This document shows positions 7,373-30,351 of a stretch of DNA of 64,000 nucleotides, in pieces (the first letter of the stretch is position 1; each line of letters starts with the position of its first letter). Source of the stretch: a virus (taxonomy: Duplodnaviria; Caudoviricetes). Both the position numbers and the translations under genes were made by a program. The stretch lies in the IMG/VR virus record IMGVR_UViG_651703002_000001, positions 96,001 through 160,000 of that record, one strand, 5' to 3'. The notes beneath the pieces were generated by a model that had not been told where the DNA came from, searched no databases, and saw only the letters and a program-made list of their open reading frames with translations.

Positions 7373-9177
7373 TTAACGATAAGCAATCAAGGGAACTAAC
7401 CGCATCTGTAAATGATGTGGTAGAATCCATGAATATCGTTACGGATTCTATGCTGACCCTAGATGATAAATCTGGGGTTCTAGCCAAAACCACAACGGAT
7501 TTAACCGCAGCCTATGATATTAATTCTGATTCTTCTATACAAGTTGCACAAGAGCAAGAAAAGCTTGCAACTCAATTAAAAAAGAGTAGAAAGAATATAA
7601 AGGCCCGAGATAAATCTGAGGATGGATTTGCCGAGGAAAGACGTAGGTATCTTAGTGATATTCTAAATAGACAACAGCCTTTAGTAGATCATACTTCTCC
7701 TGAATCTCCAAATACGGTTCCTGAAGATACAAGGGAAACGCTAGAAGAATTTATTAAAAGGGAGATTGGAACTAAAGATGAATTCATAGAAGAATTCAAA
7801 AAGGAAAATGGAAAGACTGGAAAATTTATTCGAGACGTTGCTTCAAAGGCAAATATTGTTGGTCGAATGAAAAATTCAGAGACTTCCGCGACTGCTAAAA
7901 TTCTTGGTCATACGATGAGTGCCGGTGTCGGTATGATCACAGGAACCATTAATGATATATTGTCAACTATTCCCGGTTTTCAACAGGTGTCTAATGCTTC
8001 TAAGTTTGTAGGTGGGGCAGTTCTTGACGCACATAACGCACGTAAGGAAAAGAATCTAGATGAAAGGGCATCAAAGGCTTATTCAGAGAAGAAGGCTGAC
8101 GCAGTTTCTAAATTCAAACAAATCCCAACAAACTCAGGATCCCCCGAAGAAAAAGTAAAAGAAGAACGGGAAAACGCTAATAAGAAAAAGGATAGAGACG
8201 AGAATAAACAAGAACGTGATAAAAGTGAAAAACGTTTTGGTGGATTGATGAAATGGCTTAAAGCGTTTCAAATGTCTATGATATTCAGTAAGCTATTAGG
8301 TTTCCTTCTTCCTATTGGTGGAATACTAATGAGTCTTGCCGGTTCTATTCCTGCTTTAATGGCTACTCTTGGTGGATTGGCTGGTGCGATTGGGCTTGCT
8401 ATATCGGGTGCTATGACTAAGTTTTTGGATTTGGCAAAAGGTTTATTTGGTATAAAGAAACCAACAGGAACTCCAAAAACTTCCAGTCCAGATCCTAAAA
8501 AAACAACCAAAACTCCTACATCAACTTCTCCTGATGTGAATGGTAAAAAACAACCTACTCCATCAACAACGCAACCGAAACCTAGTGGTCCTGCTGATAA
8601 GATACCAAAAGATGCAGGTAAAACTTTGGGTAAAGAAGCGGCTAAAGATGTTGCCGGTAAAAAGTTAGGGAGAAAAGGTGCAGAGATTGCAGGTGAAAGT
8701 GTATTTAAGCGGGTTGCTTCTAGTGGTGCTATAAAGGTTGCTGCTAAAGTCGGTCTTAGAATGATTCCATTTGTAGGAACTGCTTTAACCCTGTATGAGA
8801 TCGGTAGTTATTTGGCAGAAAACCCCGATGTAGTTGATAAAGGGAAAGCTATGCTGAGTGAAGGGGCTTCAGCCGTTGGAAACTTCTTTGGTTTCGGTGA
8901 AGCTCAAGCTTCCGAATCTAAAATAGAGCCGGTGATCCGATCTGGTGAAGATAAAGCACAATCGCAGAGAATCGAAGAGAGTAATAAGAAGGTTGAAGAA
9001 TATAGGAAAAAAGTAAATGCGGAAAAAGAAGAAATGGCTTCCCGTAGAATGGGGGCTGAGTATGCGGCTTTGCATAATACTACCTATAACGCTATGAGTT
9101 CCGTTCTTCCTTCTGGATTTGGTCCTTATAATGCAGAACAACCTATTGGTTCATATGGAGTACAACCGTTATCATGA
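7369..9177 (+). CDS. 29: Baseplate hub / tape measure protein gp29
   Basis: 602 aa, helical low-complexity sequence with a Gly/Ala-rich hydrophobic segment and RMIPFVGTALTLYE motif; follows 26/51. Confidence 0.75.
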   Translation: MINDKQSRELTASVNDVVESMNIVTDSMLTLDDKSGVLAKTTTDLTAAYDINSDSSIQVAQEQEKLATQLKKSRKNIKARDKSEDGFAEERRRYLSDILNRQQPLVDHTSPESPNTVPEDTRETLEEFIKREIGTKDEFIEEFKKENGKTGKFIRDVASKANIVGRMKNSETSATAKILGHTMSAGVGMITGTINDILSTIPGFQQVSNASKFVGGAVLDAHNARKEKNLDERASKAYSEKKADAVSKFKQIPTNSGSPEEKVKEERENANKKKDRDENKQERDKSEKRFGGLMKWLKAFQMSMIFSKLLGFLLPIGGILMSLAGSIPALMATLGGLAGAIGLAISGAMTKFLDLAKGLFGIKKPTGTPKTSSPDPKKTTKTPTSTSPDVNGKKQPTPSTTQPKPSGPADKIPKDAGKTLGKEAAKDVAGKKLGRKGAEIAGESVFKRVASSGAIKVAAKVGLRMIPFVGTALTLYEIGSYLAENPDVVDKGKAMLSEGASAVGNFFGFGEAQASESKIEPVIRSGEDKAQSQRIEESNKKVEEYRKKVNAEKEEMASRRMGAEYAALHNTTYNAMSSVLPSGFGPYNAEQPIGSYGVQPLS

Positions 9178-15137: not shown

Positions 15138-15511
15138 CACATGACTCATTTGTATATACTGTTTATAGTCCATGTTTTTGTATTGATGCAAAAACAAATA
15201 TACCGGTTTGGGGTTATCCTAAAGAAGGGGAACCGCCAATTAACATAATTCATCTAGAGAATCAAAGAGTTTATTTTGATGAGTCGATCCGTATTGATCT
15301 GCACGGTCTTGTAACTGCGGTACTTATGTTTATTAGAGAACGAACCCCAGAAGCAACACATCTTTATATGTACAATATAAATGTGGAACATCAATATGTT
15401 GAATATACTTTCATCAATAAAGAAAAGAAGTTGCGCCTAGCAAGGAGTAATATTCATAATAAAAATACACCTTTTGTTGAAAGTGAATGGTTGACCCCTA
15501 ATGAAAATTAA
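15134..15511 (+). CDS. Hypothetical protein
   Basis: 125-aa ORF, ATGA overlap with the upstream gene. Confidence 0.7.
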   Translation: MTHDSFVYTVYSPCFCIDAKTNIPVWGYPKEGEPPINIIHLENQRVYFDESIRIDLHGLVTAVLMFIRERTPEATHLYMYNINVEHQYVEYTFINKEKKLRLARSNIHNKNTPFVESEWLTPNEN

Positions 15512-15551
15512 AAGTTTACAAACCACATTTTGATATGTTATCATTGTTTTA

Positions 15552-15690
15552 GATACGAAAAGGTCGAGCGCGATGCGGTAAGGAAGCAAAGCGGTTACAT
15601 CCTTAATACTGAACCGATTAAGTTACGGCGGATGGACTGGGCTTTGGTAAACGGGGAAGCATAGACCCGAGCACCTGAGTAGTATCACCA
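15552..15690 (+). ncRNA. ~139-nt stable-RNA candidate with tRNA-like ends (T4 species 1/2-type)
   Basis: GC-rich, no ORF, own promoter (TTTACA 15515, TATCAT 15539); 5' GATAC pairs with 3' GTATC followed by ACCA; internal TAAGGA/TCCTTA stem. Confidence 0.7.
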
Positions 15691-15708
15691 AATTATGGGA
15701 GTTTATTT

Positions 15709-16104
15709 ATGACACGTAATGAGAAATATAAATTAGGAGTTTCTAAATTTATCAAGAAAGGTTTAACATTGATACAATCTAGTATCATGTATAAACAGAC
15801 AGATCCTGAATGGGAAGAAAAAGACGAAATTTATTGCTACCTAAATAAGGATGATAAAGAGATTTACATTATTAAACGTCTTGGGTCGTGTTGTGGTCCT
15901 TGGCTTAGTGTAAGTTGTCGAATTCTTCGTAGAAAAGGTTATGCGGAATTCAATTTTGATGATACAATAGAAGCTGATTATATGGGTGGTAAACGAACTG
16001 CATATCGTGTGATGTTTACATCCGAACCGGAAGTAGTGTATAATGAAAACTTCCCGTTCTACAAATCGAATCTAATTCAGATTTATGAAAAACTAACCAA
16101 ATAA
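15709..16104 (+). CDS. Hypothetical protein
   Basis: 131-aa ORF with GGGAG RBS. Confidence 0.7.
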   Translation: MTRNEKYKLGVSKFIKKGLTLIQSSIMYKQTDPEWEEKDEIYCYLNKDDKEIYIIKRLGSCCGPWLSVSCRILRRKGYAEFNFDDTIEADYMGGKRTAYRVMFTSEPEVVYNENFPFYKSNLIQIYEKLTK

Positions 16105-16202
16105 AAAGTTTACACATCATTGAATATTGTGATATGATGGTTATATCGATGAGTCATCGAACAAACAGTTTTGTGATGTACATCTAGAATGTTTAAACTT
16201 GT

Positions 16203-16279
16203 GCGCTGTTAGCTCAGTTGGATAGAGCAACGTTCTTCTAAAGCGTGGGTCGCTGGTTCGAATCCAGCACGGCGCACCA
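16203..16279 (+). tRNA. tRNA-Arg(UCU)
   Basis: Anticodon loop CTTCTAA, TTCGAAT T loop, CCA. Confidence 0.95.
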
Positions 16280-16285
16280 AAATTC

Positions 16286-16369
16286 GGGGATGTGGTGAAA
16301 TTGGCAGACACACCAGATTTAGGTTCTGGCGCTTATAGCGTGACGGTTCGAGTCCGTCCATCCCCACCA
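16286..16369 (+). tRNA. tRNA-Leu(UAG)
   Basis: CCAGA-TTTAGGT-TCTGG, variable arm, CCA. Confidence 0.95.
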
Positions 16370-16477
16370 GATTTAAGGGATAACTATGAAAATCCTCAAA
16401 ATGAAGAAATACCCTTACACATGTAGATTGTGTGGTTGGGATTATGAAAATTGAAGTTTGTGAATAAAAAGCTTTAT

Positions 16478-16553
16478 GCGGGTGTAGCTCAGTTGGTAGA
16501 GCTTCTGATTTCCAATCAGAATGTCGCGTGTTCGAGTCACGTTACCCGCTCCA
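16478..16553 (+). tRNA. tRNA-Gly(UCC)
   Basis: TCTGA-TTTCCAA-TCAGA, U discriminator, CCA. Confidence 0.95.
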
Positions 16554-16556
16554 AAT

Positions 16557-16630
16557 TTGTATGTAACTCAATTGGTTAGAGCACGGGACACAAATCCCGT
16601 AGGATGTTGGTTCGAGTCCAATCATACAAA
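16557..16630 (+). ncRNA. Aberrant tRNA-like gene (6-nt anticodon loop, no CCA)
   Basis: Acceptor TTGTATG/CATACAA, normal D and T arms, anticodon arm ACGGGA-CACAAA-TCCCGT. Confidence 0.7.
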
Positions 16631-16641
16631 AATTTCAAGAT

Positions 16642-16719
16642 GGCCCCCATAGCTCAGTTGGTTAGAGCGTCCGACTCATAATCGGGTGGTCACTGGTTCG
16701 AGTCCAGTTGGGGCCACCA
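16642..16719 (+). tRNA. tRNA(CAU), probably Ile2 (lysidine type)
   Basis: GGCCCC acceptor and CTCATAA loop resemble enterobacterial tRNA-Ile2; one extra C in the 5' C run; CCA. Confidence 0.85.
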
Positions 16720-16740
16720 AATTTTGATGAGAACTATATT

Positions 16741-16935
16741 ATGTCTGGTATAAAATCCATAATTGAAAATTGGTCAGTTGGTGATGGTATAATCCACTGG
16801 AAGAATGGACGTCATAGTTTAGTAGTCTTTGGGTTTGCTCCAAATGGAGAACCTGCATTTAAGTTTAAAGGTAAGAATAAACTTACGTCAGTAAGACAGA
16901 TTGAAAAATCAATAGTGATGGCACATATTCTATAG
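16741..16935 (+). CDS. Small hypothetical protein
   Basis: ATG 16741 with GAG RBS; 64 aa between tRNAs. Confidence 0.55.
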   Translation: MSGIKSIIENWSVGDGIIHWKNGRHSLVVFGFAPNGEPAFKFKGKNKLTSVRQIEKSIVMAHIL

Positions 16936-17177
16936 TCGTAAGCTCTCACGAATTTAATGGTCGTTGACCTTACGATAACAATAAAGCGGGTATGAGTCCC
17001 CTAGCTTTTAAAATTATAAAAGGGATGTTGATGCGCGTATGTAGCCGGGTTATAATGACCGAGATTCATGAAGGGTAAAAGACTACCCTAAATATTAGTG
17101 TAAGAAGAGTATTTTGGGGTTATCGCAATTAAATTGTTATAATTTTTCGGAATACCAGTTACACTAATAAATATTAT

Positions 17178-17253
17178 TGCGAGTTGGAGAAGTGGTCATC
17201 TCGACAGGCTCATTACCTGTAGGTCGGTTGTTCGAATCAACCACTCGCAACCA
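17178..17253 (+). tRNA. tRNA-Met(CAU)
   Basis: ACAGG-CTCATTA-CCTGT, acceptor TGCGAGT/ACTCGCA, CCA. Confidence 0.88.
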
Positions 17254-17259
17254 AATTAA

Positions 17260-17335
17260 GGGCGTGTAGTTCCAGCGGTAGAACGATGGACTGTTAATCC
17301 ATGTGTCGGGGGTTCGAATCCCTCCACGCCCGCCA
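17260..17335 (+). tRNA. tRNA-Asn(GUU)
   Basis: ATGGA-CTGTTAA-TCCAT, G discriminator, CCA. Confidence 0.95.
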
Positions 17336-17338
17336 ATT

Positions 17339-17456
17339 TTGTGTATAGTTTAATCGGTTAGAACATGGTGTGGATCGACTCCACCTTTGCTGAATAGCGA
17401 AATAAATAACTGGCTTTAGTCGCCGGATGGTGCGGGTTCGAATCCCGTTACACAAA
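17339..17456 (+). ncRNA. tRNA-like RNA with ~45-nt structured insertion, no CCA
   Basis: Acceptor TTGTGTA/TACACAA, D arm GTTT-AATCGGTTA-GAAC, T arm GCGGG-TTCGAAT-CCCGT, three hairpins between D and T arms. Confidence 0.7.
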
Positions 17457-17464
17457 AAAGTTTA

Positions 17465-17558
17465 GGAAGGTCAACCCGACGGTAGGCGACGGGAGCGGTC
17501 TTGAAAACCGCCGAGGCGTAACAGCGCCTTGTGAGTTCGATCCTCACATCTTCCGCCA
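17465..17558 (+). tRNA. tRNA-Ser(UGA)
   Basis: GCGGT-CTTGAAA-ACCGC, long variable arm, GCCA. Confidence 0.93.
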
Positions 17559-17567
17559 AGTTTTAAT

Positions 17568-17643
17568 GCATCGTTAGCTCAGCAGGTAGAGCATGGGACT
17601 TTTAATCTCAGGGTCGCTGGTTCGAATCCAGCACGATGTACCA
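17568..17643 (+). tRNA. tRNA-Lys(UUU)
   Basis: TGGGA-CTTTTAA-TCTCA, CCA. Confidence 0.95.
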
Positions 17644-17649
17644 GTTTTA

Positions 17650-17733
17650 GGATGCATAGGCAAATGGTTAAGCCAGCGGTCTGTAAAACCGTAGCCTTCG
17701 GGCTTCTTGGTTCGAATCCAAGTGTATCCACCA
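17650..17733 (+). tRNA. tRNA-Tyr(GUA)
   Basis: GCGGT-CTGTAAA-ACCGT, variable arm, CCA. Confidence 0.95.
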
Positions 17734-17739
17734 AATAAT

Positions 17740-17814
17740 AGGTCTATGGTGTAGTGGTAACATGCCGGATTCCAAATCCGTGCGTCTGGGGTTCAAGTCC
17801 TCATGGGCCTGCCA
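17740..17814 (+). tRNA. tRNA-Trp(CCA)
   Basis: Loop TTCCAAA, acceptor AGGTCTA/TGGGCCT, GCCA. Confidence 0.9.
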
Positions 17815-17819
17815 AGTTT

Positions 17820-17896
17820 GGGGGATTAGCTCAGTTGGAATGAGCGACTGGTTTGCAACCAGTAGGTCATCGGTTCGACCCCGATATCCTCCACCA
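17820..17896 (+). tRNA. tRNA-Ala(UGC)
   Basis: ACTGG-TTTGCAA-CCAGT; G3:U70 pair; CCA. Confidence 0.95.
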
Positions 17897-18014
17897 ATTT
17901 TAATGAGCTTTTATGAAAATAATCAAGGTAAGAAAGTATCCATATACATGCAACGTTTGTGGTAACGACTATGACGACTGTTATTGTGGATTCTTGTTAA
18001 GTGTGTAAATAGAT

Positions 18015-18209
18015 TATAATTAGGTTATGGGCTCTAGATTCCTAGTCAGTTTCGCACCCTATAATCGCAACGCTGGTTCGAATGTAGATGTTTTGACCGA
18101 CTATAAACTACAGCCAGCAACGTATAAAAATCAGGATAAGTCCTGTAAAATCCTCGGTTGTTTCTAAGTCCCTCTCTGGTTCGTGAGTAATCAGGCGATA
18201 CTAATTATA
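18015..18209 (+). ncRNA. Putative ~195-nt structured RNA
   Basis: Closed by TATAATTAG/CTAATTATA; internal stems GCTGGTT/AGCCAGC, CAGGA/TCCTG, CTGGTT/AATCAG; no ORF; strand inferred from the flanking tRNAs. Confidence 0.55.
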
Positions 18210-18339
18210 TAAACGGGGTAAATAATTTAAGCGAGATTAGGGTTGCAAACCGAAATCGTAAGTCGTCTTGTACATACCCACTCAAAGAAGGTATGAGTTT
18301 ACAAGGTGCGCCAGTTTTCAGTCTGGTTAAAACTGTTAT

Positions 18340-18417
18340 CCGTGTGTAGGCTAGGCAGGTCAAGTCGTCTGTTTTGGGACCAGAAGATCGAAGGTTCGAA
18401 TCCTTCCACACGGACCA
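18340..18417 (+). tRNA. tRNA-Pro(UGG)
   Basis: Loop TTTGGGA, acceptor CCGTGTG/CACACGG, CCA. Confidence 0.92.
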
Positions 18418-18990
18418 ATTTTTATGAGGAAAAATGATATGTGGCGATCTGTTGAAGTTACTGTTAAAAAGTTTGAAGAATCTCATCTCCGAAAATTGAC
18501 AAAATCGCGTATTAAGGCATTCAAAGCATCCTTGTCTCCGCGAAGTTGGTATGCGATTTACAGATGTTTGTTGTGAATCACGATGCGAAAGTATTGAAAA
18601 AGATCGCCAAACAGAAGCATATGAAATTTATATTCATAATATGGCTAATATCAACGCCATTTATGCCGAGAAATCAACAGACCTTTCCAATGGTTGCACC
18701 AACTGGTCAAATTAGCACAAAGAACGGGATAACGGCGTATATCCCCGGAAGAAGCCAGCCATAGAGAATCTGGATATCCTATAAAGTGCTTGTAATTTAT
18801 AGGCGGGATTGGTAGTATAAAGACGATATGGTAACTACCCATTGACTAGCAGTGTGAAACTAGAGGTTACTGTCCTTAACCAAACTACGAACAGATGGAC
18901 AAAATGGTTGATTTCCCTTCCTCTTAGTGATAGCGTATCAACCAAATTAGGATATAATCACAATCTACGGACCCTGATTATATTCCGACT

Positions 18991-19066
18991 GCCGAATTAG
19001 CTCATCTGGTAGAGCACAGCCTTTGTAACGCTGGGGTGGTCCGTTCGAGTCGGACATTCGGCACCA
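18991..19066 (+). tRNA. tRNA-Thr(UGU)
   Basis: Loop TTTGTAA, acceptor GCCGAAT/ATTCGGC, CCA. Confidence 0.93.
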
Positions 19067-19078
19067 AATTAATTAAAT

Positions 19079-19154
19079 AGTGGATTAGCTCAGTAGGTAG
19101 AGCACTCGACCGATAATCGAGAGCGCATTGGTTCAACCCCAATATCCACTACCA
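19079..19154 (+). tRNA. tRNA-Ile(GAU)
   Basis: CTCGA-CCGATAA-TCGAG (C33), CCA. Confidence 0.9.
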
Positions 19155-19160
19155 ATTCTA

Positions 19161-19248
19161 GGAGAAGTGGATGAGCGGCTTAAATCGCTCCCCTGCTAAG
19201 GGAGTAAACCGGAAGGTTTCGAGAGTTCGAATCTCTCCTTCTCCGCCA
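19161..19248 (+). tRNA. tRNA-Ser(GCU)
   Basis: CTCCC-CTGCTAA-GGGAG, long variable arm, GCCA. Confidence 0.95.
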
Positions 19249-19255
19249 AATATTT

Positions 19256-19331
19256 GAGGATGTAGTATAGTGGTCAATATCCCTGCCTGTCACGTAGGAG
19301 ATCGCGGGTTCGAGTCCCGTCATCCTCGCCA
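19256..19331 (+). tRNA. tRNA-Asp(GUC)
   Basis: CCTGC-CTGTCAC-GTAGG, GCCA. Confidence 0.95.
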
Positions 19332-19335
19332 ATTT

Positions 19336-19576
19336 GGATTCCCGTCAATAGTCCGGTCTATGGGAATCAACGCTTTAAGTAGCCCACCGGTATTTGTAAA
19401 GAGTGACTGTATCTAGTGGAAACATTAGACAAGGCTTAGATTCCCTTTCTCAGGGCCTAAGCGTAAAGTAACGAGCAAGACCTTCTTGTAGGCTTAACCC
19501 ATTGGGGTGTTTGAGGTTTACATGTGTGGGCTCGGATAGCCAATGCTATTAAGTCTGGTGATGGTGCGACCGGATC
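19336..19576 (+). ncRNA. Putative ~240-nt multi-stem pseudoknotted RNA
   Basis: Nested stems, a GAAA tetraloop and long-range TCCGGTC/GACCGGA complementarity; no ORF; begins just after tRNA-Asp. Confidence 0.65.
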
Positions 19577-19583
19577 AATTTTT

Positions 19584-19775
19584 GGAACCACAATAAACAA
19601 GTATGTGCCTTGGTGGTTCGACCTGCTTTGCAGCCGTACATGAAGCTAAAGTTTTTGGATTTCTAAATAAGAGTATGGGACTCTGGAAATCGACACATTA
19701 ATTTGTATCCCGTTAAACTAAAAACTGTGAGGTTGTATATGTCGCCGCTAAACGCAAGCCGTTAGGACGTAAAAG
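19584..19775 (+). ncRNA. Putative RNA with two tandem pseudoknot modules
   Basis: GAACCAC/GTGGTTC and GATTTCTA/TGGAAATC hairpins, each with an AATAA bulge, GTATG-containing apical part and a downstream loop complement. Confidence 0.55.
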
Positions 19776-20074
19776 TAAAAAATAGTATTTTCATAAATGG
19801 TTATCCTAATGATGGTGTTCCTGTATTATGTAACGTGTTTTATCAATATGAAACTAATGGAGGTCCGTTAGACATAATGATAGAAACCCCTGTATAATTC
19901 CGGATATATTATTGATTGGTATTCTTTCATAAAAGATGCATTAAACATTGGATGGAAGAAAGAGACTATAATTAAGAAAATAAAGTATGCATTCGATGAT
20001 GTTGAAATACAAAATTCGGATGATATATTAAAAAGAGTTATCCAGTATATAGAAAGCCTATAAAGGAAAATGGT

Positions 20075-20323
20075 ATGGGTAAAACTGTTCGCCGTAAAAA
20101 TGAAAAATATCTCCACGAATTGTACGATAGTATTGATGTGACCCGCGATTTGGGAGATTATTACAATAAAAGTCCGGATAGTGGTGTTAAGGATCGATAT
20201 AATGTATTGTCCCGACAGCGGGATCGTAAGCTGAAGCATGACATTCTACATGGTGACCATGATGTTTTTGTTGATGATGATTACGAAAAGAAACGTTCAA
20301 ATTCAGGTTATCAATACAGTTAA
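20075..20323 (+). CDS. Hypothetical basic protein
   Basis: 82-aa ORF with AAGGA RBS. Confidence 0.6.
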   Translation: MGKTVRRKNEKYLHELYDSIDVTRDLGDYYNKSPDSGVKDRYNVLSRQRDRKLKHDILHGDHDVFVDDDYEKKRSNSGYQYS

Positions 20324-20371
20324 GGATATTCTATGTACAGAGAAGAAAACGAAGGCTGGTTTTAAGTGTAA

Positions 20372-20600
20372 GGGGTAATTAATATACCCCAGCGGCGTCA
20401 AACTATGTAGTCAATGGTGTGGTGACACCATACATAGTCACTAGACGAAAAGAGGGCGTATAACCTCGCATACGCTTCCCGTTATTAGAGGGTAGTGTGA
20501 CCTACTACAACACGAAAGGTTGTCTCTCAACTTCACCTAGAGGGGCGCATTACAACGGGGACTCTATCTTGCTTTGACTGGCTTGATATAGTCCCCGTTT
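20372..20600 (+). ncRNA. Putative ~230-nt structured RNA
   Basis: GC-rich, ORF-free; stems GGGGTA/TACCCC, ACTATGTA/TACATAGT, TGGTGT/ACACCA, GGGCGTA/TACGCTT, AACGGGGACT/AGTCCCCGTT. Confidence 0.55.
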
Positions 20601-20624
20601 CCTTTGGTATAATGGAGTTTTATA

Positions 20625-20828
20625 ATGATTACTTCTTTACTATTAATTTATATTATTTTTATCTTTGTGTTTATGGCGGCATATGGATTAATTGATTACC
20701 GAGAGTCAGAACAAAAACGATATCCTGATATAAATGAAATATTTGACTACTTCTTGGCTGGTTGTATGTGGCCTATAAGTATTGCTATCTGTGTAATTTA
20801 TAAAGTGTCAGAAGGTAGCTCTAAATAA
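20625..20828 (+). CDS. Small membrane protein
   Basis: Two hydrophobic segments, WP motif, GGAG RBS. Confidence 0.7.
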   Translation: MITSLLLIYIIFIFVFMAAYGLIDYRESEQKRYPDINEIFDYFLAGCMWPISIAICVIYKVSEGSSK

Positions 20829-20906
20829 CAGTATATGTATAACCGATGACGAGAACGAACCTCCCACCAACGATCAAGACGGATTCGGTTCTACTGATTC
20901 TTATTA

Positions 20907-21152
20907 ATGCATGATTTTACAATACAAAATGATGAGGTTTATCCCGTGGCAATGATGCACGAAAAGAAACATGCCCGTGAGGGTAGAGGTTCCGCTAATG
21001 GTGGAAATGAAAAATGGTATAACTCCCCACTTTGGGAAAAAGTGGAAGCCAAGCAAGTATCATTGGATGCAACTCCTGATGATCTGCTAAAAGAGAAAGA
21101 AAATGAAGACCTTAGAGCAAAACAGCGCCGTATGTTTGCAATGGCTTATTAA
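20907..21152 (+). CDS. Hypothetical protein
   Basis: 81-aa ORF co-oriented with neighbours. Confidence 0.6.
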   Translation: MHDFTIQNDEVYPVAMMHEKKHAREGRGSANGGNEKWYNSPLWEKVEAKQVSLDATPDDLLKEKENEDLRAKQRRMFAMAY

Positions 21153-21174
21153 CAACTAAAAAGGTAAAACAGAT

Positions 21175-21729
21175 ATGATAGTATCGCCAAACAGTTTCTT
21201 TAGAGACGAATATGTTAGTATGATAAATAAAAAGTTGAAACTTTTTAAAAGTTCCGATTACGTTAGTAGAATGAGACTTCAACTAGCCCCACATTCTTTT
21301 CAATCTGAGTTTGCAACCATATGTTTAGATATGGGTAGACAAACCGGTAAAACGTCTGCGGCTTTGATGTTACTTGAGCAACATAGTGATGCACTTTATA
21401 TTGTTCATAATAGCGCCGCGATGAGATCTATTGTTTGTTTTGCTCCGCATTTGAAAAATCAAGTATTGTCAATTAGTGATTTTGTCAATAGGTTCTATTC
21501 TCGCGGAACATATAACCATGTAGTTTTAGGTAGTAGAATAGAAAAATATAGTTTGATCATTCTTGATGAACCATATTTTACGTGTACGAATGGACAAAGA
21601 CAATATACAAATAAACCAAACTGTTCTTATTTCGAAAGTATAGACGGTGAGAGTGTGAAAACTTATGACCTTGTAAGTTTTGCAGCATTTAAAATGGATT
21701 CATTAATAGTTAAGTTGGGAATGCAATGA
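21175..21729 (+). CDS. Small P-loop NTPase-like protein
   Basis: MGRQTGKT Walker A and LIILDEP Walker B. Confidence 0.65.
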   Translation: MIVSPNSFFRDEYVSMINKKLKLFKSSDYVSRMRLQLAPHSFQSEFATICLDMGRQTGKTSAALMLLEQHSDALYIVHNSAAMRSIVCFAPHLKNQVLSISDFVNRFYSRGTYNHVVLGSRIEKYSLIILDEPYFTCTNGQRQYTNKPNCSYFESIDGESVKTYDLVSFAAFKMDSLIVKLGMQ

Positions 21730-28011: not shown

Positions 28012-30351
28012 ATGAATTTTAAACTTGACGACTCTAATCTTGTTATCAATCACCTTTTTCTCAACCAATCTCAAGAAATCCTAGAGAAAATCCGAGAAAC
28101 CCGTAGTAAAGATGTAATTGATGAACCATTTAAACTTACCATCATGATCAATGGTGTTGAGATTGAACATGTAGATTCATATGAAAACTTTATGAAATAT
28201 CAATATGAAGTTATGGAAAACCGACTTAAACAGGAATATAACGTTGATGCGTTTGATATGCGGGTGAGGGATGCTGCGGAAAAGATCATCAAGGATAAGT
28301 TTGGTGATTTGATGGACAAGATGTATGATTTTGAACGTTCTGTTGATTTTGGAAACTCTGTAATAGAAACCGAATGGGGTATGTAATATGAAACTTGATT
28401 CTGGATTTTTCGAAAAAGTAAAGTACACAAACCGTTATGATGTTAAACATTTTCGTACATTTGATAATGAAGTGTTGTACGTTTGGGAAAAACATTCTAC
28501 CAATGAAGATCCGGTAATTGAGTTGGTTATGGTTGATGATGAAGTCTTTATGACCGGTAGATATTTTGACCAATACGATTATGATGATTTTATCTATAAT
28601 ATAGAAAAAGATTGCATTCCTGACCCATTCTGGTAATATCTATCACGTAGACAACAAAACAGAGGAAGTAATCATGAAAGTAGGCTCAATGGTTCAGATC
28701 AACGTAAATAACTTTACTGGTGAAAATGACCACGAAAATCCGTTTGGTATTGTCGGTGAGGTTATCGATCATAGTCCTGAAATCTGGACAAAAGTTGAAT
28801 GGCCTAATGGTGTCATAAGTTATTACGATGAGGATGAACTGATTTGTCTTGACTATCAGGAAGAAACCAAAATTCCAACAGTTGTTCAACCAGAAACCGG
28901 ATTTAATCCAGTGTTTGTTGCTCGCGTCATTGCAAAAATTGACGAATATCATAAAACCTATCTGGTAGAACATCCACATGATTGGGATTGTTGTGGATTT
29001 GCTTCTGTATCCATTGAGTTTGGTCGCAAACGTAAGATGAAGGAACAGGTTCAAGCTCTTGGTTTTAATATCGCTTATAAAAGTGGAACCGATTCAATTA
29101 TGGATCCCACGTTTCGAATTCCCTCTTGTGGTCATCAGTCGTTGACTTACAAGGAAGAAATCACCAAGATTATTTGTGAAGAAATTAACAATGTAGTTGG
29201 TGAAAAAATTGCCCGTGTATCATCTTATATGGATTAAAATGAGGAAAAATAAATGAAAGTAGGTGTTTTTGTTTTTAAGAGTCCGTATTTCGTGGATAAA
29301 TTTATTAAGTCTGCGGAAAACCGAGATTTTATTTTGAATGTGTATATGAACCATGAAGCTGACGGTTCAATCGAACTACACGCTTCAACTACCGCGCTAA
29401 GGTATGCAGATCGAGATGGATACCTTAGTCGATTTATTGTAAATGGTGTAGAGAAGATTGACGAAATCAATTCAATTGATGTTTCTGATTTTGGTGAATA
29501 TTTCGAATGGGTCCGTGATTATGACGTGGAAGACCCAGAAGAAGATACCCCGATTGATGAAGATGTATTGTATTCTGCCATCATGAAGGATCTTTACGTT
29601 CCAGAACCGCAAAAAGAACCAGAAGATGATTTTACAAAAGATCTGTATGGTATGAGTATGTCTGGGGAATTGAAACTGACTGGGCTTCCTAAACCCGTTG
29701 AGCATATCAAAATTGATAATATTGAGATTCTTGATTTGGTATCAAATGTAATGGAAGGTGTTTCCAAATACGAAATGACTATTTCCAAAGACTCGGAAGG
29801 TAAACAATGTTTTCAACTGAAAATCGAATGGTAGTAGAAGGGCGGTATCAATTCCGCTCATTAGAATCTCGTCATGCATATAGAAATAGTTGTGAAAGCA
29901 ACCGTTTCAATTATGAGCTGATGAAAGATGGATTTCGTGTATTTCATACTGACGAAGATGATAACGTTATTGCGATCTGTTCCATTGATGATGTTCTTGG
30001 TGAAAGACCATATTATCGCAATGATGGAACGGTTTATATTAATAATGTTGAGAGTGTCCATTTTTATAGGATCCACGAATGACAGTAAAAGACATTAAAT
30101 ACCTTGCTAGATCTTTTGGTACATCTGGGGAATTGATCCTGAATAATGCCAAATATCTAGGGTTTAATGATTGGGCATATGACTTTGTGACACTTGATGA
30201 ATCTAAAATTGAATTGGATACAAATATAGTTAAATTTTATTTTATATCTGGTTCAACTACGTATATCCATCCTGTGAATCTAACAACCTTGAATTATTCT
30301 CCCGATTGGGTTATCGGTGAGTTTTATAAGGAAATTTATTGTGAAAATTAA
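28012..30351 (+). CDS. Six tightly packed hypothetical ORFs (28012-28386, 28388-28636, 28674-29237, 29253-29834, 29807-30082, 30079-30351)
   Basis: Co-oriented, abutting or overlapping starts and stops, RBSs present; no motif recognised. Confidence 0.7.

Follow-up and report, generated by a model that had tools for sequence, protein, structure and literature searches.

Two unrelated families of predicted pseudoknotted RNA among the tRNA genes of a T4-like Aeromonas phage

To our knowledge, no explanation has been given, since T4 RNA C and RNA D were discovered, for the retention of non-tRNA RNA genes within the tRNA clusters of T4-type phages. The same question is raised by a 64,000-nucleotide (nt) stretch of a 235-kb virus (positions 96,001 to 160,000 of IMG/VR record IMGVR_UViG_651703002_000001; hereafter, the window), which belongs to a T4-like phage of Aeromonas. 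An original prediction, made from the letters of the window alone, had singled out three segments free of open reading frames (ORFs) among the tRNA genes, modules a, b and c, and had taken them for copies of one dispersed pseudoknot RNA module composed of AATAA(A), a short stem, a UAUG-containing apical region and a downstream complement of the loop. The strings quoted for the three modules are all present where they had been placed. Judging from the comparison of homologous sequences, however, module a on the one hand and modules b and c on the other are two unrelated families of structured RNA. Family 1, of which module a is the 5' end, is a single-copy RNA of ~112 nt (16983..17093, + strand). 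Family 2, which includes modules b and c, is a ~70-nt RNA with three copies in the window, units d, b and c (19332-19726, + strand), and one copy in phage Ahp1. Both families appear to be new.

The closest relative in our phage collection is the Aeromonas phage avDM6 (Straboviridae, Ishigurovirus), in which 81% of the region 16900-20650 is covered at 93.5% identity; the CC2-like ceceduoviruses come next. ARAGORN identifies 18 tRNA genes in the window, 17 of which lie on the + strand within 16203-19331, and two sigma-70-like promoter-like sites (16015-16044 and 16109-16138) are located just upstream of this cluster. All 16 canonical tRNAs of the cluster encode their CCA, and each is followed by an A/U-rich spacer. 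Family 1 sits here between two tRNA genes with CAU anticodons.

The 5' domain of family 1 consists of an 8-base-pair (bp) stem, the loop of which is drawn into a second helix. Stem P1 (16983-16990 with 17001-17008) closes a 10-nt loop (16991-17000) made up of L1, UAUGA, and of GUCCC. These last five bases (16996-17000), the 3' part of the loop, pair downstream with GGGAU at 17022-17026, while the A-rich linker L3 (17009-17021; 13-14 nt across the family) runs along the stem. The hairpin loop is thus paired, with covariation, to a segment 3' of its own hairpin, i.e., the domain is an H-type pseudoknot. It is followed by a conserved GAUGCGC block, by helix P2 (17038-17041 with 17067-17070), which encloses the P3 hairpin (17048-17051 with 17057-17060; loop AUAAU, GUAAU in most relatives), and by the terminal P4 hairpin (17072-17077 with 17084-17089; loop AAAGAC, AGAGC-type in relatives).

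The fold was evaluated in alignment A4, which comprises 20 distinct sequences and omits L228, a cut-off copy of L229, and L015, which matches only model positions 40-108. Taken over P1, the pseudoknot, P2, P3 and P4, 97.4% of 540 cells are paired, compared with 66.0% in shuffled controls and 31-42% when the partners are slid. Changes on both sides are observed in 24 of the 27 pairs, and none of 500 shuffles reached any of five measures. P1 is 94.4% paired, with both-sided changes in six of its eight pairs; P2 (97.5%), P3 (100%) and P4 (97.5%) covary at all of their four, four and six pairs, respectively. The pseudoknot helix (alignment columns 14-18 with 41-45) is complete in all 20 sequences (100% paired), has changed on both sides at four of five pairs and occurs in seven sequence versions, e.g., GUCCC:GGGAU, UUCCC:GGGAA, GUACC:GGUAU, GCUGC:GCAGU and UUCGC:GCGAA. 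Because model R1, built from 11 sequences with nested helices only, does not contain the pseudoknot helix, this pairing was not fitted. In P2, CAUG at 17067-17070 pairs with UAUG at 17038-17041; a middle pair varies among A-U, G.U and G-C, and the entire helix is rebuilt in the jumbo phages. G.U pairs are frequent (column pair 7-20 is GU 11 times, column pair 61-93 is UG 10 times), which establishes the + strand as the RNA strand of family 1.

The pseudoknot originally drawn for module a, ATGAGTC at 16992-16998 with GATTCAT at 17063-17069, did not hold up in relatives: it is 66.1% paired in 19 distinct sequences, and five of its seven pairs depart only by unpaired cells. Likewise, the AATAA(A) element of module a consists of flanking sequence and the 5' strand of P1, and the 5' flank in relatives reads AATAATG, GGAAC, GCCA or GATTT, which places AAUAAA outside the family. 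L1 is UAUGA in 12 of the 20 members; the others have ACAGA, UAAGA, AAAGA, AAUGA or CAUGA, and one member is deleted there. AUG is found in L1 of 15 of the 20, with CAG or AAG in close relatives. Family 1 was also considered as a peptide gene, a reading that was rejected because frames opened by the L1 AUG hit stops at differing positions. The bases GA at 16994-95 may form a two-base contact with UC at 17066-67, all four being invariant. Folding of single sequences was uninformative (z-scores from -0.1 to -2.7), and the minimum-energy fold of module a misses the pseudoknot.

With R1, family 1 scores 121.8 bits and is single-copy both in the window and in the genome as a whole; the next-best match (7415-7448) scores 14.8 bits. 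Members outside the training set are recovered at 45.8-78.2 bits, among them the Cronobacter jumbo phage GAP32 (50.6), Ahp1 (62.4), five other jumbo phages (45.8-59.1) and two metagenome contigs (76-78). By blastn, 16983-17071 is ~77% conserved in Aeh1, Ah1 and AsFcp-type phages and ~82% conserved in Asfd_1, and a 41-nt core is kept even in GAP32. Pattern scans together with a second blastn search added IMG/VR records, two uncultivated viral contigs, Ahp1_CNU-2021 and two metagenome contigs. Represented among the 20 distinct sequences are Aeromonas straboviruses, GAP32-like jumbo phages and metagenomes, and family 1 is present in 18 records of GAP32-like jumbo phages of Pectobacterium, Yersinia, Serratia, Erwinia and Xanthomonas. 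A pattern for the 5' half matched five IMG/VR records; its narrow form matched nothing in 185,579 species genomes and nothing in metagenomes. Matches of 3'-half patterns in L013, L017, L018, L019 and L023 were judged by eye to be due to chance and dropped, and L227, also matched by such a pattern, gave no R1 match at E<=1.

In every annotated phage record examined, family 1 lies between tRNA genes and on the same strand. It is found among the tRNA genes of Aeh1, Ah1, the AsFcp-type phages, Asfd_1 and GAP32, and in the GAP32-like jumbo records examined it stands before tRNA-Gly and after tRNA-Gln or a small ORF. In Asfd_1 it begins at the base directly after the CCA of tRNA-Trp, and the next tRNA often starts a few nucleotides after its end. 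In CC2-like phages, a tRNA follows family 1 directly. The ~85 nt that separate family 1 from tRNA-Met in the window (17094-17177, + strand) recur in avDM6 only; this segment contains TTGTTATAAT, which resembles an extended -10 element.

Family 2 has a different architecture, in which an uninterrupted 3' strand joins a 7-bp stem to a stacked one of 3-4 bp, a bulge of 4-6 nt interrupts the other strand, and the 6-7-nt loop pairs with a segment ~25 nt downstream. In unit b (19580..19652, + strand; 88.8 bits with model R2, which was built on b and c), the outer stem is 19585-19591/19613-19619, the bulge 19592-19597 and the inner stem 19598-19601/19609-19612, while the loop 19602-19608 pairs with 19636-19642. 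Unit c (19653..19726, + strand; 81.2 bits) has its outer stem at 19658-19665/19684-19691, its bulge at 19666-19670 and its inner stem at 19671-19674/19680-19683; its loop, 19675-19679(80), pairs with 19708-19713. The third copy, unit d (19332..19402, + strand; 20.2 bits), is diverged and directly follows tRNA-Asp. Its outer stem (19337-19343/19362-19368) covaries (CCC/GGG, CUC/GAG, CUU/GAG), and its loop bases CCGGU at 19353-19357 can be paired with ACCGG at 19386-19390, a pairing read by eye at the homologous place.

Units b and c align without a gap over ~73 nt and have UUUGG, CGAC and CUAAA in common, so that the shared architecture claimed in the original prediction is borne out for these two but not for module a, which has no enclosing outer stem. 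Between b and c, five of seven outer-stem pairs and two of four inner-stem pairs are changed on both sides. The loop partner occupies the same alignment columns in both units, with two of the seven pairs changed on both sides and two more changed on one side. The copy in Ahp1 (28.8 bits, E 1e-5), located 20 nt before tRNA-Met, has a wholly different outer stem (GGUGAUC/GAUCACC); its loop UACGAGC and partner GCUCGUG keep seven of seven pairs, two of them through double changes. In 12 distinct rows of family 2, pairing amounts to 100% in the outer helix, where six of seven pairs have changed on both sides, and to 97.9% in the inner helix. The loop/partner helix of these rows shows both-sided changes in four of seven pairs and is 79.7% paired by columns. 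Hence the claim that loops and partners differ yet stay complementary can be kept for b and c, in which they covary in homologues, and has to be given up for the pairing proposed in a. The bulge, by comparison, is free to vary, being AATAAA, ATTAA, ATCAA, GAAA or AACAA in close relatives of unit b.

In the whole genome at E<=10, R2 matches two unrelated places besides b, c and d. In avDM6 and in four CC2-like phages it again detects unit d, at 24.4-28.9 bits. Unit c is present and b absent in avDM6, the reverse being true of the CC2-like phages; in the avDM6 unit c, an outer-stem U.G has become U-A. In contigs of two public runs, 19578 is directly followed by 19653, or 19580 by 19652. Since the letters skipped (19579-19652 and 19581-19651) correspond to unit b, this unit is a discrete insertion or deletion of 72-74 nt. 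R2 found nothing convincing in T4, GAP32, Asfd_1, Aeh1, Ah1 or two further IMG/VR records, and blastn with the Ahp1 copy returned the self-match only. Scans of IMG/VR with the 3' halves gave at least 118 loci for b and 61 for c; after filtering for the upstream stem, none was left among the matches listed. A coding reading of b and c was rejected as well: the frame has 32 amino acids in the window, 17 in the CC2-like phages and reads MGL-stop in avDM6 (the latter two determined by eye).

Three lines of evidence separate the two families: the models miss each other's elements, the folds are built differently, and conservation of the AAUAA/UAUG likeness is lacking. R1 with filters off reports nothing at b, c or d at E<=10, and R2 reports nothing at a at the same threshold. 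Neither AATAA(A) nor the UAUG apical motif is conserved in either family; family 2 loops, for example, read UAUGUGC, UAUGGGA, UCCGGU and UACGAGC. In our opinion, this corrects the record, the resemblance of the three modules being superficial. The bare motif AATAA-N3-6-TATGNG occurs five times in the window against 1.76 expected, a count reached by 7 of 100 shuffles, and a loose structural descriptor matches dozens of places in the genome. The motif is therefore not rare, and the case rests on comparative evidence. Of the "looser versions" of the module that had been proposed, the one from 19337 onward turned out to be part of the weak member d (19332-19402, 20.2-28.9 bits), while those at 18072-18159 and 20402-20537 are matched by neither R1 nor R2; the region 18060-18165 is conserved over just 40 nt even in avDM6.

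Comparison with catalogued RNAs supports the part of the original prediction that spoke of undescribed, non-coding, pseudoknotted RNAs on the tRNA strand, though not of a single family. At the gathering threshold, Rfam 15 gives 18 matches in the window, all of tRNA type. The relaxed cmscan run against Rfam (E<=10, 15500-21500) gives 32 matches, none overlapping 16977-17100 or 19332-19730; no described family thus matches the modules. We found no description of either family in the literature, with the reservation that the supplements of a survey that lists 10,006 candidate viral RNAs (PMC10690425) may contain them.

Several known systems resemble one or the other family in part. Classical H-type pseudoknots with an A-rich third loop are found in the T4 gene 32 leader, in luteovirus frameshift knots and in the SAM-II and preQ1-II aptamers. 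The 5' end of family 1 shares with them an 8-bp stem 1, a 5-bp loop-derived stem 2, the lack of a second loop and a linker that, with 13-14 A-rich nucleotides, is long enough to span stem 1; it differs in lying outside an mRNA leader or coding region, in carrying three further helices and in having no Rfam match. The Pistol self-cleaving ribozyme also combines a hairpin-loop pseudoknot after an A-rich linker with nested helices that follow, as family 1 does. In family 1, however, the 3' strand of the pseudoknot precedes P2, unlike in the Pistol consensus, and no Pistol match was obtained at E<=10. Family 2, in turn, is topologically like the acceptor/T-arm minihelix of tRNA and viral tRNA-like structures, with 7 bp plus 3-4 bp, a continuous 3' strand and a 6-7-nt loop, the D and anticodon arms being replaced by a bulge of 4-6 nt. 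It also starts in the spacer context of the cluster tRNAs: the first base of units d, b and c is, as in these tRNAs, a G preceded by ...AUUU or ...GUUUUU. Unlike tRNAs, it has no T-loop consensus, its stems end in GAC or AAC rather than in CCA, and its loop pairs with its own 3' trailer; neither ARAGORN nor the Rfam tRNA model makes a call at a, b, c or d.

The RNAs closest to both families in genomic setting are T4 RNA C (species 1, rnaC) and RNA D (species 2, rnaD), which are likewise encoded within a T4-type tRNA cluster and on the tRNA strand. There is no homology to either: R1 has no match in the T4 genome at E<=1, and the best R2 match there (E 1.59, 29003-29036) lies outside the tRNA region. 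Furthermore, rnaC has a tRNA-type T arm and rnaD ends in CACCA, features that families 1 and 2 lack. The roles of RNA C and RNA D are reported to be still unknown (PMC3014915).

Taken together, the analysis suggests that the two families are probably uncatalogued structured RNA genes of the tRNA operon, freed as small, stable, trans-acting RNAs in the manner of T4 RNA C and RNA D. Both would share a transcript with the tRNAs, started at the early-type promoter-like sites that lie just before the cluster, and would be released by the nucleases that separate the tRNAs, through cuts in the A/U-rich spacers and RNase P cleavage at the next tRNA. The freed RNAs would persist thanks to their knotted folds and might bind a protein or another RNA in trans, a mode of action also assumed for RNA C and RNA D. 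That family 1 occurs both in straboviruses of Aeromonas and, far from these, in the GAP32-like jumbo phages (350 kb) of Enterobacterales and Xanthomonas speaks for a function under selection that moves along with tRNA arrays. Two further non-tRNA RNA genes of such clusters are now at hand, with well-supported folds and working search models, and their function is directly testable, the Aeromonas phages Aeh1, CC2 and avDM6 being cultivable. A bolder version, which we regard as unlikely, is that phage tRNA operons house dedicated "passenger" RNA genes, which make use of the processing line of the tRNAs. Family 2 would then be a mimic of the tRNA top half that enters the RNase P or CCA-adding pathways or soaks up a tRNA-directed host defence nuclease, and family 1 would expose in its loop L1 a codon-like triplet at which the anticodon of a tRNA docks, much as at a T-box specifier. 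If real, either RNA would give phages a new means, based on RNA, of managing or protecting their tRNA pool.

It should be noted that several observations weigh against trans-acting RNA genes or against parts of the folds on which this proposal is built. Single loop/partner matches of family 2 are near chance level: the 7-bp match of unit b alone is reached by 182 of 5000 dinucleotide shuffles and the 6-bp match of unit c alone by 954-1303 of 5000, and 423 of the 1360 genomic hairpins with a 4-bp stem and a 7-nt loop (31%) have at least six contiguous pairs within 78 nt downstream. By these controls, any one loop pairing is weak when taken alone, but the shared register stands, and it is this register together with a third lineage, Ahp1, that makes the pairing in b and c convincing. 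Rows of unit d pair in just three of the seven loop/partner columns of the model alignment, and their 5-bp pairing was drawn by eye; the low figure, and with it the 79.7% overall, arises because the model alignment gaps their 6-nt loop. Family 2 is based on four lineages only (b, c, d and Ahp1). Since the nested helices of alignments A3, A4 and A6 were placed by alignment to the models, they are favoured there. Three members of family 1 (L015, L229 and L230) have no tRNA within 300-400 nt on either side, so the linkage of this family to tRNA genes is frequent rather than obligatory. Finally, in a study of a pseudoknot substrate, cleavage by RNase P reportedly depended on a 3' RCCA (PMC12710915); since family 2 has neither this element nor a T-loop consensus, its efficient recognition by RNase P is disfavoured.

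What else could account for these segments? The main rival to trans-acting RNAs, which we hold to be possible though distinctly less probable, is that the elements act in cis within the operon, either as spacers by which RNase E, RNase P or 3' exonucleases are directed or held off, as 5' stabilisers of a downstream mRNA, or in anti-termination. Unit b in the CC2-like phages and unit c in avDM6 are each the last element before GAGGTTGTATATG and thus share the same 5'-leader position, with a strong Shine-Dalgarno sequence and AUG (~19729-19742) just downstream. Moreover, unit d comes directly after the last tRNA of its run, and family 1 often ends a few nucleotides short of the next tRNA. A signal for processing a single neighbour is nevertheless disfavoured, because family 1 moves among different tRNAs (Met, Ser, Gly, Asp, Gln) and in the three cases mentioned has no tRNA in 300-400 nt. 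A leader function fits poorly with the tandem of b and c in the window and with the Ahp1 copy, which precedes a tRNA and not an ORF; in addition, the ORF after c stops after eight codons, and this phage has a disrupted gene downstream. It is rather improbable that family 2 represents functionless, decayed tRNA genes, i.e., top-half remnants left by internal deletions. The minihelix topology, the 7-nt loop and the tRNA-like slots would suit such an origin, and deletions of this type do occur: next to unit b, the tRNA-Trp of phage AS-szw (L002 3946-4003) has lost its T arm relative to that of CC2 (L005 4408-4483) and is a fresh pseudogene. Decay does not explain why stems and loop/partner helix are kept by compensatory changes in four lineages while the bulge drifts, and the lack of a T-loop consensus, of CCA and of any call by ARAGORN or the Rfam tRNA model also speaks against it.

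Two further explanations concern the identity of the elements rather than their function. That a, b and c are, as first proposed, copies of one dispersed module serving as decoys or ToxI-like mimics is now very improbable. Within this window, AAUAA, a stem, UAUGNGN and a downstream complement are found at all three places, and the pairing proposed for a is reached by only 224 of 5000 shuffles. These likenesses are outweighed by the mutual blindness of R1 and R2, by the lack of conservation of AAUAA and UAUG, and by the 66.1% pairing of that helix against 100% for the alternative one. As for the antitoxin part of the proposal, type III antitoxin RNAs (ToxI) and the pseudo-ToxI mimics of phages are small pseudoknot RNAs, ToxI arrays being composed of near-identical ~36-nt repeats. 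Families 1 and 2 are likewise small phage-borne pseudoknot RNAs, and b and c stand in tandem, but the b and c units are ~73 nt long and too diverged for Tandem Repeats Finder, which at a minimum score of 30 reported no array in 16000-21000; cmscan at E<=10 hit no antitoxin family. Least probable of all is that the conserved block in module a is a DNA promoter (TTGATG, 17 nt, TATAAT; 17028-17056) and not an RNA. The two hexamers match at 10 of 12 positions in the window, yet the second one is CGTAAT or GTAAAG in most relatives, the flanking bases covary as P2 and P3, and the G.U pairs mark one strand.

Some neighbouring stretches deserve mention. Downstream of unit c (19729-20060, + strand), the strong Shine-Dalgarno sequence and AUG (GAGGTTGTATATG) open an 8-codon frame in the window and in all relatives compared, and no listed ORF of 30 or more amino acids is found on the + strand of 19701-20075. 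The conserved gene downstream of it, phrog_22967 (unknown function), is intact with 106 codons in AS-szw; in the window, two additional letters, an A near 19785 and a base near 19890, disrupt it. The stretch between units d and b (19403-19577, + strand) is structured and conserved, with 94-96% identity in relatives; CC2-like phages carry an insertion of 190-300 nt directly after unit d and a tRNA-Trp after this stretch.

Within the cluster, the stretch 18226-18316 (+ strand), located just before tRNA-Pro, has GCGCCA plus GUUUU at its end. Both CGUAAGUCGUC and a 3' end of the GGCGCA type are common to this stretch, T4 rnaD (L010 2054-2172, minus strand) and Asfd_1 (L007, ~1935-2045), and the stretch may be a homologue of rnaD; blastn gave no match to it in avDM6 or the CC2-like phages. 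A tRNA-like gene at 17340-17456 (+ strand) has an acceptor stem, a D arm, a canonical T arm (GCGGGTTCGAATCCCGT) that matches the T arm of T4 rnaC, and an insert of ~45 nt. It is not called by ARAGORN, scores 17.2 bits with the Rfam tRNA model and is 87.5% conserved in avDM6. ARAGORN reports 16556-16631 (+ strand) as "tRNA-???" with a two-base anticodon, "ca" (45.5 bits with the Rfam tRNA model); its anticodon loop apparently has 6 nt (CACAAA), and among the 17 cluster tRNAs it alone does not encode CCA. Lastly, the stretches 18770-18990 and 20395-20545 (+ strand) contain conserved hairpins with nine compensated pairs each in 4-5 relatives and are candidates for further structured RNAs that belong to neither family.

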